A stretch of 64,000 nucleotides of DNA, from the NCBI GenBank assembly GCA_964016885.1, contig OZ024741.1:388368001-388432000 (forward strand), written 5' to 3'. The stretch's first letter is position 1. Every line of letters starts with the position of its first letter. Positions 10,381 through 61,599 of the stretch are shown here, piece after piece. The notes under the pieces are model-generated. The model ran no database searches. It was not told the DNA's origin and saw only the letters and a program-made list of their open reading frames with translations. A program made the position numbers and the translations under genes. The stretch comes from Eledone cirrhosa (taxonomy: Eukaryota).

Positions 10381-10498
10381 TACCTACCTATGTATATATA
10401 TATATATATATTGTAATAATAATAAATTTGAAGACTAAAATCCAAAGAGGGCTCGATAAGGATAAATATATATCAAATATATAAGAACCGTAGAGCAA

Positions 10499-10636
10499 AT
10501 ATTTATTAAAATAACAGATTAAAGTTTAAGCAAAGAATCGCTGCTTTCACCCTTAATGGGATATTCTGAAAGATCCCGTTAAGGGTGAAAGCAGCGATTC
10601 TTTGCTTAAACTTTAATCTGTTATTTTAATAAATAT
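10499..10636. repeat. Fold-back element, about 64-bp arms, hammerhead-like motif at apex
   Basis: Arms 10499-10562 and 10573-10636 differ at one base; CTGAAAGA-tccc..gggt-GAAA spans the loop and right arm. Confidence 0.85.
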
Positions 10637-10649
10637 ATATATATATATT

Positions 10650-10915
10650 CTAAGGCGGGTAAAAATCAGTATACACTGAGGATGAAAAACTCAGAGCTGT
10701 ATGGGAGCATCCCAAAAGTCAGCTCAAAAGTGACACAGAGGAGACTGAGGTTAGCTGGACATGCTCACCGACATCTAGAGTTGACATTGCACTCAGTGCT
10801 CCTTTGGGAGCCCCTACATGGACACACTAGAAGAGGAAGACCAAGGTTAACGTATGTTGATGCCCTAAGGACAGACACTGGTCTGTTGGAGACGCAGGAC
10901 ATGGCAGCGATAATA
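10650..10915 (+). mobile_element. RTE-type LINE C-terminal fragment
   Basis: QRRLRLAGHAHR..RGRPRLTYVD. Confidence 0.6.
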
Positions 10916-10958
10916 GATATATATATATATAAATATATATATATATATATATATAAAT

Positions 10959-11281
10959 ATCATCATCATCATCATCATCATCATTTTACGTCCACTTTTC
11001 CCTGCTTGCAAGGGTGGGACGGGAACTGATTCTGGCTTGATTTCTACAGCTGGATGCCCTTCCTAACACCAACCTCATTTACAGTGAGTGCTGGGTGCTT
11101 TTTTGCCGTGGCGCCTACACGTCCACTTTACAGTGAAATGATAGGGACCTCAGTCCCTATCATCTCATTTCTACAGCTGAGTAAACTGGAGCAATGTGAA
11201 ATAAAGTGTCTTGCTCAAGGAAACAACACATCACCCGGTCTGAGAATTGAACTCACAACCTTTCGATTGCAAGGCCAATGC
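10959..11281 (-). mobile_element. tRNA-derived SINE with RTE-derived 3' tail (5' truncated)
   Basis: Copy of 57370-57716; B-box GAGTTCAATTC on the minus strand; (GAT)n tail. Confidence 0.8.
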
Positions 11282-11311
11282 TATATATATATATACGCCA
11301 TATATATATAT

Positions 11312-12708
11312 ACGCCAGTATAAAGTTCAGCATGGAACACCCCGATGACCGCGGATCCCTATCCCTACTGGACTTCCAACTCAGGGTAACAGAGGAAGGC
11401 AACATCCACACCTGCTTCTATAAAAAATCCGCCAGCAGGGACCTGTTCGTACATTTCAGATCGGCCCTCCCACTCAGTGCCAAGTTCGGATACATAAAGA
11501 ACGAACTGGCACGTATCAAGAACAAATGCACCGACGCCAGAGACCGAGACACACACACCACACATTTCCTGGAAGTACTCAAACTGAACGGATACACGAC
11601 ATCCACCACAAACCGTGCCAGAAAGAACAGAGGACACCACACCCGAGGCACTAACACTTGCTTCCTGAAGCTCCCACACTTCAGTGAAGAAACAACAACA
11701 GCCATCCGCAGAGCCATCAGACGAGAGGGACTGGATATCCAACTGGCCCACTCGGGTCCTTCTCTGCGCGGACGGCTGGCCAAGAGACACTCCACCAAAC
11801 ATGACAACTGCTGCAGACTAGCCAACTGCCCCATCAACGACACAGACCTATGCCACCAGGCTTACGTAGTATTCAGACTAGAGTGTGACAAATGCAACAA
11901 CTTCTACGTAGGTAGCACCACCAGACCACTCCACATAAGAATAAAAGAACACCTCAATACTAACGCTTCCTCATTTAAGAAACACCTAGTTAAATGCAAA
12001 AACACCGATAAAAACATAACAGTTAGGATAGAAACTAAGGAAAGAAACCTCGGCAATCTTAGAATTAAGGAAGCACTTATTATAGATAGAACACATCCAC
12101 CAATCAATAATAGACTAGAGCTCAACACCCAATTTATAACCTGATAGGGCCTCTAGCCCCATTTTTACACACCCCACACACACGCACGCGCACACACACA
12201 CGCTTACACCTCCACTTATTCTCTCTCACACATACACACACAAAACCAGTTCTAACACTAGATAACACCTACCCCCCACTTTTACGATTAGACCTATCTT
12301 CCCACACTCACACACACACACCCACATACCTACACCTTCATCCATTCTCCCACACACATATACAGGCACGTATATAAATTAAAAAAAAAAACCAAAAAAA
12401 AAACCCCTAAACAAACCCCTCTTAAAGGGAGACTACTCTTTATCCACCTAATTTTAATTCTTTGATATTAGAGTTAGAACAGATACTCTATACTATTTCC
12501 GGTCAGCATGGCTTGGCTAGAGATTTAAAGACGCTGGTTTGAGACCTTTACTTCCCTCCAAAGAAGAGATATTATCTCGAAAATTAAGGACATTTAAATA
12601 AATTCAAGGTGAAAGACGAATTCTCATCAATATCTTTCACTATTGCATTCTTTTTTCTATGTCCATACCTGCATTGTATTGGCCTTATTACACATATTCT
12701 AACGTTTA
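11312..12708 (+). mobile_element. Penelope-like retroelement, 5' truncated (RT C-terminus, thumb, GIY-YIG)
   Basis: ORF 11278-12144: LSLLDFQL, YKKSAS..HFRSALP, VVFRLECDKCNNFYVGSTTRPLHIRIKEH, LRIKEALII..PPIN; both ends in (TA)n. Confidence 0.9.
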
Positions 12709-58772: not shown

Positions 58773-58835
58773 CATATATATATATATATATATATTATTT
58801 TAATAAATATATATATATATATATATATATATATA

Positions 58836-59345
58836 TACACAAAGAGAAGTGTGTTACACAGTGAGATGTGTGTAAAAAATTATTACTAGTGAGTTTACCG
58901 TTACTGAACAATATCTACAGGTTTAGCAATTAAATAGAAAAACACTAAGCCAGAATCAAATCTCTGGATTTGAGTTTTAAATTACCAACCTTCTTACTAT
59001 ATTTTGCTGATACGAATCTCGTTTCGTTTCATCCAGAGATTTGATTCTGGCTTAGTTTTTTTCTATTTAATTGCTAAATCTGTAGATATTGTTCTCTATA
59101 CAGTAACGGTAAACTCACTTGTAATAATTCTTTACACACATCTCACTGTGTAACACACTTCTCTTTGTGTAATATATAGTTGCATTTGAGCTCAGAAGGA
59201 ACTTCTCTATTCTTCTTTGAGCTAATACTATTATTATTATTACAGTGAACTGCGGAATACTCTTAATTCTGATCTTTGTATACTTAATGAGCTCCAAATT
59301 GTTGAGCTAATAAATTCGAATGGTTGGGCTGCACTTTCTAGCGTC
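58836..59345. mobile_element. Fold-back element, about 135-bp arms plus extension
   Basis: Arms 58836-58969 and 59031-59171; (TA)n flanks. Confidence 0.85.
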
Positions 59346-59384
59346 TATATATATAGCGTATATATATATATATATATATATATA

Positions 59385-59810
59385 TGCAAAAGTTCTATTT
59401 AAAATTGTTGGGATACAACAAGTAAATATTTTTATAACTGATATAAAGCACTCGACAAGTATTTGGAGTAGATATACGATATTAATAAATGGAAACTATA
59501 TTTATAAAACCATATTTATTTCATTATACATATTTCAGGGATACCAAATTAAATTATGGTATGCCTTCATCAGACAAAATACAATAAATGCAACCATTAT
59601 TTTTGGAAGCCATCTGGATACTATCCAGATGGCTTCCAAAAATAATGGTTGCATTTTAAAAGGGTACGTCAAAGCTTATTTGTAAAACTGTTATATATTG
59701 TATTTTGTCTGATGAAGGCATACCATAATTTAATTTGGTATCCCTGCAATATGTATAATGAAATAAATATGGTTTTATAAATATAGTTTCCATTTATTAA
59801 TATCGTATAT
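59385..59810. mobile_element. Nested fold-back: 115-bp hammerhead-bearing arms around a perfect 35-bp hairpin
   Basis: Outer arms 59472-59586 and 59696-59810; inner hairpin 59586-59656. Confidence 0.85.
59518..59580 (-). ncRNA. Type I hammerhead ribozyme motif
   Basis: Minus: attttgt-CTGATGA-aggcatacca..tggtatccct-GAAA-tatgta-TA-atgaaat; all three stems present. Confidence 0.78.
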
Positions 59811-59820
59811 ATATATATAT

Positions 59821-59962
59821 ATTGGTAAACGGAATAGAAAATGCTGACAAATTGTTCACAGTGAAAAATAGTTTAATTAGGAATAAATGAGAATTAGTAA
59901 TTCTCATTTATTCCTAATTAAACTATTTTTCACTGTGAACATTTTCTATTCCGTTTACCAAT
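59821..59962. repeat. Fold-back hairpin, about 65-75-bp arms, 1-nt loop
   Basis: Apex gagaatta-g-taattctc at 59897; 11-bp indel between the arms. Confidence 0.85.
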
Positions 59963-61599
59963 ATATAATAACTTGTGTGTTACACCTCTATTTTTTTAAC
60001 TATATATATATATATATATATATATATATATATATATAAATGAGGTAAATATCTCACTGGGTACAAAGTACCCATAGAGATATATAGGGTGTCCATAATA
60101 TAATTGTTGTTCTATGGTACTAATCGAGATACCAAAACTATAAAAATTGATGAGCAGAACAAACAAACATTAAACAATCCTTTAAATGAATTAAAAAATG
60201 ATTTAAATATCTACCTGTTCATAATGCTATTACCGCCGGTTTCCATTTACAAAAGATTAGAAATTCAGAGAATTTCCAACGGAAAGTAAATTTCATCAGA
60301 TAGCTATTTCCATTCTATAGGACTTAAGTCCCACGGTCTGCAAATATAATGCCAACTACCAGCTGGTATGAGTTATGGCCGATTGGTATTATATTTCTCT
60401 TAATCGAAACCATCGTAGAAATAAATATTTACTAACTAATTAACAGTTTGGGAAGAACACATTGATCATGGCAGTCTCGCTATTTTGGGGAATCTTCACA
60501 ATAAACACTCAGTACATACTGTACAGTGGTTGGTGATAGGAAGGGCATCCAACCGTAGAAAGTTTGCCAAACAATGGGTTGGGAGGACTCTCAGTTGTGT
60601 CAAAGACAATACAACCTCTCTTGAGCACTCGGCAGAACTGATTGGTCTATGCAGATCTGCCCTAGCAGGGAAAGCAGACATTAGAATGACAATAATGATG
60701 GTGATACAGACACATACACATATATGTATATGCTTGTTTTATAGATTTGTGTAATCAATGCACTAAACATACACTGAATAAAATATTCATGTAACATCTA
60801 CATAGTTAAAATATTACAGTAACACCCTGCTTAACACTACTCTGTTCAGTATTATTTTTTCTTGGAGACAGTATTTTAAGTCAGATAACACTGCATTATT
60901 ATAATAATTGTATACTAATATATAAGAAACTATGATTCACATTCATACATAGTTCAGCAATGTACATGTATTGTTCACACAATTGTTTTGTCCATATTGA
61001 GAAGGAAATAGTCTTTAACTCTAAGTGCTTAAAATTCATCTACTGTTTTGAAAAATGCATCACATTGGATGTAAAACTTCAAGTGTCAAGGCAGTTAGAA
61101 GCTGGCTAATGTCAAGTGTATGTAGGTAAGTCCAGTAGCATAACTAGTAGTTGGGTGGTGGGCAACACTTTTATGGGGACAGCACTTTTGGGTCTGCTAT
61201 AAGTGTTCTTTTAATGCTGCAGCACTGCTGTGTGTAGGAGATGCCATCTTCGTTGTTATATAAATTTCATTTATTTTTCTTGACAGAAGTTCATTTGAGG
61301 GTATGTGTTGCTCTATTTTTGTTTTTTGGACCTGGATTTTCTGGACAGACGAATTTTATGTGTGATTATTGTATTCCAGCTTCTTCAATATTCACTTTCC
61401 TTGCCATTAAATTACCATCAGTATATTATTTGCTTTCTGATAAAAAGTTACCTATAGAATGTTCCATTCTCCGATACTTGATGGTGTAAGGTAGGTTTTA
61501 GTAAATAGTGTGTATCATATGTATTTTACAATAGGTAAATATAGTGTTTCACAATTACTACTACTACTGAAGCTGGAGAAGTTTCCGAATCCAAATCAT

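Follow-up and report, generated by a model that had tools for sequence, protein, structure and literature searches.

Fold-back inserts in a (TA)n-rich stretch of the Eledone cirrhosa genome as probable head-to-head products of Penelope-like elements

Introduction

Penelope-like elements (PLEs) of the Hydra clade, as described in PMC8557442, have one open reading frame (ORF) of ~700 aa with DKT and RW motifs, a CxCX5C linker, CxxC and CxH, insert into (TA)n, and leave inverted 5'-truncated copies with a tail at one end; the supplement of that report includes a cephalopod family, Hydra-1_Obim, with (TA)n as its target. The origin of the inverted structures and one-sided tails of PLEs was named there as an open task, and the explanation put forward in print is self-priming on antisense RNA (PMC3846280). 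Here we describe a 64,000-nt stretch of Eledone cirrhosa (assembly GCA_964016885.1, contig OZ024741.1, positions 388,368,001 to 388,432,000; hereafter the window), part of a 3.0-Gb genome, which is rich in (TA)n tracts and carries many fold-back inserts. Their layout is nearly fixed, one short arm being paired with one tailed arm, and they are probably head-to-head, 5'-truncated products of several PLE families, made by two-site priming on one sense RNA, run-off and joining.

Other described systems offer partial parallels. The protein of the Poseidon element PAc cuts and extends both strands of AT-rich targets in vitro, and two internal reverse transcriptase (RT) start sites on its RNA define the tail; pairing of ends, run-off and cDNA joining lie outside the scope of that study as far as its accessible text goes (PMC11167929). 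In L1 twin priming, an inversion results when one RNA is primed twice, and an untemplated G marks a copied cap (PMC4859970); in the inserts described here, by contrast, the two sites are fixed, lie 34–165 nt apart and copy the same RNA segment, which yields a true inverted repeat. The inverted copy, the one-sided tail (PMC8557442, PMC3846280), (TA)n targeting and two tail-defining RT starts (PMC11167929) are already published PLE traits. What is new here is evidence on mechanism, namely the pairing rule, the start site marked by an extra G and the spliced pairs; the literature searched, whose coverage mostly excluded subscription papers, held no report of twin priming, of run-off products or of a G copied from the cap in PLEs. 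Minimal products number in the thousands per family and let pairing, RNA start and template strand be read directly, and the open question of PLE integration becomes directly testable with the existing in vitro assay.

Fold-back inserts of the window

An initial annotation, made from the letters of the window, had listed at least 11 inverted-repeat inserts bounded by (TA)n, with mostly unrelated and usually asymmetric arms. Comparison of the window with itself recovered an inverted repeat at every one of these positions. The window holds 15 local non-simple inverted repeats, against 0–2 per shuffle in 20 local shuffles. The arms face outward and come from families that are unrelated between loci. 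Families are named after window positions (F10499, F22581 and so on):

10411–10633, F10499 fold-back: tailed arm on the minus strand (10411–10571, tail ~88 nt), short arm on the plus strand (10571–10633); 3' end of a Hydra-like PLE
22438–23422, F22581 fold-back: tailed arm on the minus strand (22438–22605), short arm on the plus strand, split by the nested F22649 insert
22648–23354, F22649 fold-back: short arm on the minus strand (22648–22879), tailed arm on the plus strand (22884–23354, tail 23286–23354); Hydra-like PLE
26277–26449, F26274 fold-back: short arm on the minus strand, tailed arm on the plus strand; older family, copies 76–90% alike
44862–45058, F44860 fold-back: short arm on the minus strand (44862–44915), tailed arm on the plus strand (44923–45058, tail ~78 nt); Hydra-like PLE
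49594–50232, F49592 fold-back: short arm on the minus strand, tailed arm on the plus strand (tail ~165 nt); 591-bp tandem non-coding unit
54432–54527, F54431 fold-back: short arm on the minus strand, tailed arm on the plus strand (tail ~42 nt)
56085–56388, F56082 fold-back: ~240-bp unit with variable short ends
58837–59345, F58836 fold-back: short arm on the minus strand, right arm extending ~63 nt beyond the usual tailed end; ~550-bp tandem unit
59385–59805, F59472 fold-back: tailed arm on the minus strand (59385–59589), folded-back piece of 35 nt (59586–59620), short arm on the plus strand (59620–59805); Hydra-like PLE
59822–60000, F59821 fold-back: short arm on the minus strand, tailed arm on the plus strand (tail ~34 nt); Neptune-like PLE
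60039–60330, single 3' end of PLE/retrozyme type on the minus strand: left end set by a TA tract, right end approximate

Two entries of the annotation had to be redrawn. The hairpin at 22581 is only the centre of the larger insert at 22438–23422, with the 22649 insert sitting in its internal TA patch, and in other F22581 copies this patch is unbroken at the point of nesting; the supposed small fold-back at 60049 is a stem-loop within one hammerhead-bearing 3' end (60039–60330) that has no pair. The (TA)n bounds hold for the inserts generally and fail for the right end of 26274, while the asymmetry of the arms is real but is a fixed family tail of ~34–165 nt and not a variable overrun. Neither the constant short/tailed pairing nor the putative constant 5' end of the RNA had been noticed.

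There is next to no probability that these hairpins are assembly artefacts. Locus-specific cover is thin, but strand-switch joints of F10499 are present in raw short reads of three other samples, several of them identical in all three, and the same reads show F10499 short ends continuing into (TA)n. Mismatch-free contigs span 56150–56249, the unique centre of the 56082 hairpin, as well as 54443–54619, and the family-specific tails and the nesting are not artefact-like. The window holds a dense, real set of PLE and retrozyme-like insertion stubs.

Relation to Penelope-like elements and retrozymes

All 11 inserts are members of genome-wide repeat families. A first look at the genome gave 1417, 887, 1243, 1121, 2511, 1520, 1464, 81 and 590 candidates per family, and exact pattern matching gave 22,588 matches for F10499, 1,040 for F22581 and 9,545 for F44860, the last counted in this way because its words are too common for a DNA search. 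Contiguous sequence ties five families to PLE ORFs, of which four are Hydra-like and one is Neptune-like; two other families are retrozyme-like and four are unlinked or weakly linked. The PLE or retrozyme origin put forward in the annotation is borne out, as is the link between arms and PLE 3' ends that it had suggested looking for, by the five families that continue unbroken into ORFs with an RT plus a GIY-YIG-type domain at the C terminus and by the two that are tandem units of 550–591 bp.

For F10499, one long copy (L251) leads into a stop-free frame of 712 aa (P0003) that starts just past the tail, and ORF-bearing long copies were likewise found for F44860 (L201), F59472 (L207), F22649 (L031, L032) and F59821 (L204, L206); the stretch from arm to ORF is common to further copies, although for F44860 it was traced there over only ~450 nt. 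YxDD occurs in all five families. The four Hydra-like ORFs (F10499, F44860, F59472 and F22649) share 30–55% identity with one another and the CxCX5C linker. P0003 has DKT, RWR (not RWK), CxCX5C, CxxC and CxH, and by eye resembles the Hydra1_Amil sequence given in the supplement of PMC8557442. The six best Foldseek matches of its AlphaFold model (pLDDT 92.8) are all telomerase reverse transcriptases (TERTs), and its 1201 relatives at E 1e-20 or better include proteins with PF26215 and one with PF01541. The GIY-YIG domain of the Hydra-like ORFs is recognised by its motif, a weak Pfam match (E 0.069) and that one relative with PF01541, while the F59821 ORF matches both RVT_1 and PF01541 above the Pfam cut-off with a CX4CxxC linker between them. 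Neptune-type PLEs are alike in having an RT, then a CX2-5CxxC linker and GIY-YIG, and a microsatellite target; by these motifs F59821, with its 34-nt tail, is assigned as Neptune-like, differing in that no hammerhead was found in the single long copy scanned. In F26274, 3 of 16 copies have matches to a Hydra-like ORF 720–830 nt upstream on the same strand.

The pseudo-long terminal repeat (pLTR) in partial tandems, the inverted 5'-truncated copy and the one-sided tail were all found, and TA repeats adjoin 54/59 F44860 ends and likewise the F10499 ends. Compared with the Hydra clade of PMC8557442, tails are longer here (~68–89 against 30–40 nt), and the hammerhead that is reported there as universal is present in canonical form in F22649 and F59472 and has no canonical counterpart in F10499 and F44860; the accessible parts of that report contain no account of products that consist of arms alone and end at a fixed RNA 5' end. 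F10499 and F44860 carry the marks of the clade and lack a canonical hammerhead, and are filed, on sequence features, as Hydra-like only.

The non-coding tandem units of F58836 and F49592, the former with one hammerhead per unit, are reminiscent of non-LTR retrozymes, for which units of 150–450 bp are reported (PMC7229834; bioRxiv 10.64898/2026.07.22.740005) against 550–591 bp here. The arrays differ further in their head-to-head arrangement, whose two outer ends are a short and a tailed one, and F49592 is without the CUGANGA core. No convincing ORF link was found for either family within 1.5 kb, and these retrozyme-like units are likely to borrow a PLE enzyme. Copies of the F49592 unit are 99–100% identical, including arrays on different chromosomes (L088–L112), so this core-less unit has been active very recently. 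Elsewhere in the window, a (TA)n-terminated 412-bp unit in 2.4 copies of 99% identity (19584–20591) may be retrozyme-like, an older relative (~70–79%) of the F44860 tail lies beside a TA tract at 22346–22420, and two 5'-truncated PLE ORF fragments with weak GIY-YIG matches (1539–2654 and 11251–12144) belong to families other than those of the fold-backs.

Pairing of short and tailed ends

Most families have two fixed 3' ends, a short and a tailed one, and in F10499 tandems the tail corresponds to the beginning of the following unit. The first 62 exact F44860 matches on C1, which give 59 loci once mirror duplicates are dropped, comprise 35 short+tailed pairs, one tailed+tailed, one short+short and 22 single or unclassifiable loci. 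For F10499, 68 loci drawn from the first 92 position-ordered matches, with ten long-spaced regions examined apart, comprise 31 short+tailed pairs (two of which are one duplicated locus), one tailed+tailed and 36 that are single, unclassifiable or edge-reaching. Among classifiable pairs the short+tailed layout accounts for 35/37 in F44860 and 30/31 in F10499 (binomial p 5e-9 and 1.5e-8), and it recurs in F59472 (36/37), F59821 (13/13), F22649 (6/6) and F54431 (7/7), as well as in nine F58836 and seven F49592 pairs read by eye.

Fold-backs of this kind invite comparison with DNA transposons, and an origin as elements resembling miniature inverted-repeat transposable elements (MITEs), or by whole-unit movement from a fold-back master, would account for the fixed outer ends, the TA targets and the junctions that do recur. 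It is nevertheless highly improbable, given that 32 of 35 pairs have distinct junctions, that arms continue into RT ORFs, that tails are one-sided and that introns have been lost (see below). Because junction geometry is so rarely shared, the fold-backs must form anew at each site, and a MITE or DNA transposon with symmetric terminal inverted repeats and a fixed interior was rejected on the one-sided tails and the same junction count. The stubs are not to be taken for MITEs.

The 5' stop and the extra G

The arms also stop at a preferred 5' position. In 46/59 anchored F44860 loci the arm starts 25–11 nt before GAAAC, in 27/68 anchored F10499 loci it starts 31–16 nt before GAAAG, and both of these 15–16-nt start windows cover a TTAGTY word, which is initiator-like; its A lies 25 nt ahead of the GAAA in F10499 and 18 nt ahead of it in F44860. 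The commonest natural variant, TCAGTY, still fits the initiator consensus. At the window loci, the F44860 arms stop at this putative RNA start and both F10499 arms end 2–9 nt beyond it. PLE pLTRs with initiator-like words and an internal promoter have been described (PMC3846280, PMC2377424).

Arms that begin at the A of TTAGTY are frequently preceded by a G that the template does not encode. The tallies are hand counts from listings of the first 100 matches, with read-through variants set aside, which is a weakness of this evidence. For F10499 (2536 matches, 21 set aside) the adjoining base is G in 50, A in 20 and C in 9, while one base downstream (903 matches, 43 set aside) it is G in 14, T in 35 and C in 8; untemplated G where the template has T stands at 50/79 versus 14/57 (p 1e-5). 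For F44860 (3004 matches, 4 set aside) the counts are G 58, C 28 and A 10, and untemplated G stands at 58/96 versus 1/24 one base downstream (p 3e-7). Both arms reach that A at 389 and 1,249 loci in the two families. Among the first 50 loci per family, where a single base separates two such arms it is G or C in 28/30 (13/14 and 15/16), and a longer spacer has C as its first and G as its last base in 18 and 4 cases, some of which may have arisen by extension of one arm over a short fold-back. At the ends of full-length L1 and SVA copies, untemplated G has been read as a copy of the cap (PMC4859970), and the genomic copies make a capped RNA start at the A of TTAGTY likely.

The stop could also mark a processed RNA end or a hard stop, such as cleavage at a 3' splice site or a bound protein, the G then arising from an untemplated C at any end. 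In both families the upstream word looks like a branch point followed by AG, and its place at the 5' edge of hammerhead stem I matches the end of the intron in D. virilis Penelope (PMC4209133). Even so, this account appears rather improbable: no copy joins the used donors to the stop-site AG (4 matches, none with donor context), whereas 164 copies use an acceptor 97 nt upstream; the arms begin at the A of AG and not beyond it; the TCAGTY variant keeps the initiator consensus; and there is no G excess at junctions one base away.

An apparent break of F59472 arms at the hammerhead edge was dismissed as query bias, since none of 100 position-ordered copies has its break 14 nt or less from that edge, where a different base stands in only 55 matches. 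Near-full-length F10499 bodies start at unit positions 173, 175 and 152 (L248:736, L250:859, L254:3639), around the tail end and before the first ATG, which hints at a second stop point.

Spliced copies, shared source and reach of the arms

PLEs are known to retain introns. Two sampled F10499 copies nevertheless jump from GT donors to an AG acceptor, and a pattern search returned 164 matches (e.g. C1:90270) from which a GT-AG intron of 720–750 nt has been precisely removed, the acceptor being the one upstream of the stop-site AG mentioned above. Intron-less PLE copies are demonstrated by these matches, and precise loss of a GT-AG intron means that the template was sense RNA. A second, rarer donor is used in 6 of the first 100 spliced matches, and because two donors are used there were at least two splicing-derived events, from which spliced copies may descend by way of a few intron-less masters. 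In the same 100 matches, 15 outward-facing pairs have both arms spliced, one of them with the rarer donor in both, which points to one source for the two arms.

Two further observations tie the arms of a pair together. Private variants are common to both arms of F44860 pairs in 20 cases against 2.9 when permuted (maximum 10), and in F10499 pairs both arms stop at the start site in six cases, both pass it in six and none is mixed (p 0.002). In 20/30 F10499 pairs the 5' reach of the short arm exceeds that of the tailed arm by over 5 nt, as the short arm also reaches further 5' in 12/35 F44860 pairs, and the tailed arm lies wholly within the tail in 8/30 and 4/35 pairs, respectively. Neither arm can therefore generally be a copy of the other.

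This bears directly on the initial annotation, which had offered paired or snap-back reverse transcription: the paired form is favoured, and snap-back is contradicted as the general route. Self-priming of one cDNA, possibly on an antisense template and with an endonuclease trimming the tail off one end, was proposed from junction palindromes in rotifer PLEs (PMC3846280), and short folded-back pieces do occur at junctions here (59586–59620 and some spacers). The reach of the F10499 short arms, the tailed arms confined to the tail and the sense template required by precise intron loss nonetheless leave this explanation very unlikely.

A PLE dimer holding two RNAs of one source locus, in which an asymmetric complex assigns the short or the tailed start to each subunit, deserves more attention, though we consider it unlikely. 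The Anolis protein is predicted to form a dimer (PMC11167929), a single source locus is enough for the shared splicing and variants, and no cDNA displacement is required. Strict pairing, on the other hand, needs the added asymmetry, and two RNAs do not by themselves explain the joint stop-or-pass pattern of F10499.

Proposed mechanism of insertion

Under two-site priming on one sense RNA, the GIY-YIG endonuclease would cut both strands of a (TA)n tract, and each DNA 3' end would prime on the RNA, one at the inner (short) and the other at the outer (tailed) site. Pairing and the single tail per insertion would follow, as each RNA copy offers one short and one tailed site. PLE RTs are not known to have RNase H, for which reason the RNA would survive, and the outer cDNA would displace the inner one. 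A transcript started in the pLTR would carry both sites 70–160 nt from its 5' end, such that priming there would let both cDNAs run off the putatively capped TTAGTY start, often gaining a C opposite the cap, whereas priming in the downstream pLTR would produce full copies and arms of greater length. End joining of the microhomology type, with small templated inserts, would then connect the two cDNAs. That this amounts to a PLE-specific rule, with same-RNA two-site priming and cDNA displacement, and with run-off stubs of the 5' pLTR integrating alone in thousands of copies, is a tentative suggestion that may or may not hold. If it does, a single cause underlies the tail, the inverted repeat and the great number of arm-only stubs, PLE transcription starts become readable from genomes alone, and the stubs are comparable to retroviral strong-stop DNA.

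A number of observations weigh against two-site priming on one capped RNA. In vitro, no strand difference in the start site was seen, and the starts lacked homology to the DNA (PMC11167929). Several samples of the other families are tail-anchored and hence blind to short+short pairs, and four pairs break the rule: one tailed+tailed and one short+short in F44860, one short+short in F59472 and one possible tailed+tailed in F10499. F10499 arms show little sharing of private variants (5 against 1.1 permuted, maximum 7), mixed behaviour at the start site occurs in two F44860 pairs, which pass it by only 10–23 nt, and shared splicing and variants fit two RNAs from one locus equally well. The partner arm could supply 13/50 of the F10499 and 25/58 of the F44860 G's; with these removed, 37/66 versus 5/48 and 33/71 versus 1/24 remain (p 5e-7 and 1e-4). 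The TTAGTY site can also be read as a 3' splice site, like the one that D. virilis Penelope has at hammerhead stem I (PMC4209133). F59472 junctions cluster elsewhere, 60–80 nt upstream of the hammerhead near TCACT, with G at only 2/6 junctions on the TCACT A, and read-through is seen in most of the copies listed. Pfam gave no match for P0003 itself, and a search of PDB sequences with it was likewise empty; for F22581, F54431 and F56082 no ORF link was found within the 1.5 kb searched.

Hammerhead ribozymes

In a descriptor scan in which complete type I motifs score 13–15 and such matches arise 0.05 times per shuffle, the window has four complete hammerheads:

22682–22742, minus strand: complete type I hammerhead in the left arm of F22649
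23192–23252, plus strand: complete type I hammerhead in the right arm of F22649
59517–59581, minus strand: complete type I hammerhead in the left arm of F59472
60226–60304, minus strand: complete hammerhead in the single 3' end at 60039–60330

Two further descriptor matches are weaker and within the range of chance, and the copy in the right arm of F59472 has an altered GAAA. The annotation had counted at least five inserts with full or partial hammerheads, a figure that shrinks to two inserts with complete motifs and the 58836 insert with the 3' half of its family hammerhead, the F58836 unit itself having a full type I hammerhead. In F49592 the motif is reduced to a GAAAC-palindrome-GTC half. 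Long family copies of 10499, 44860 and 49592 yielded no canonical CUGANGA hammerhead, for F10499 and F44860 not even at low threshold in four long copies, which have CAGAAGA or CAGAAAT at the expected core position. No hammerhead of their own was found for F54431 and F56082, and one F22581 family copy has a hammerhead further upstream. An Rfam scan of the window returned no hammerhead among the 150 matches listed, with only miRNA-like hairpins below the gathering score. Hammerhead cleavage is not required for these insertions, because the cleavage site lies within the arms and the core is missing from two of the largest families. The flanks of family copies contain at least six more hammerhead-bearing families (L116, L130, L165, L193, L200, L202, L204, L207, L409, L413), some of which are also arranged as outward-facing pairs.

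Other features of the window

A tRNA-like match at 57637–57709 (28.5 bits, just under the Rfam cut-off), where contig depth is very high, is likely to be the head of a tRNA-derived short interspersed element. At 37674–43818 lies a 3-kb head-to-head pair of a long interspersed element (LINE) whose arms are 91% identical and which encodes an apurinic/apyrimidinic endonuclease, an RT and a PHD finger, with an ORF at 40745–43399 on the plus strand and outward-facing 3' (ATC)n ends that adjoin (TA)n. Copies of this LINE are also paired tail-to-tail at 87–853 and 50470–50781, and the element has another ORF at 16188–19310 on the minus strand.

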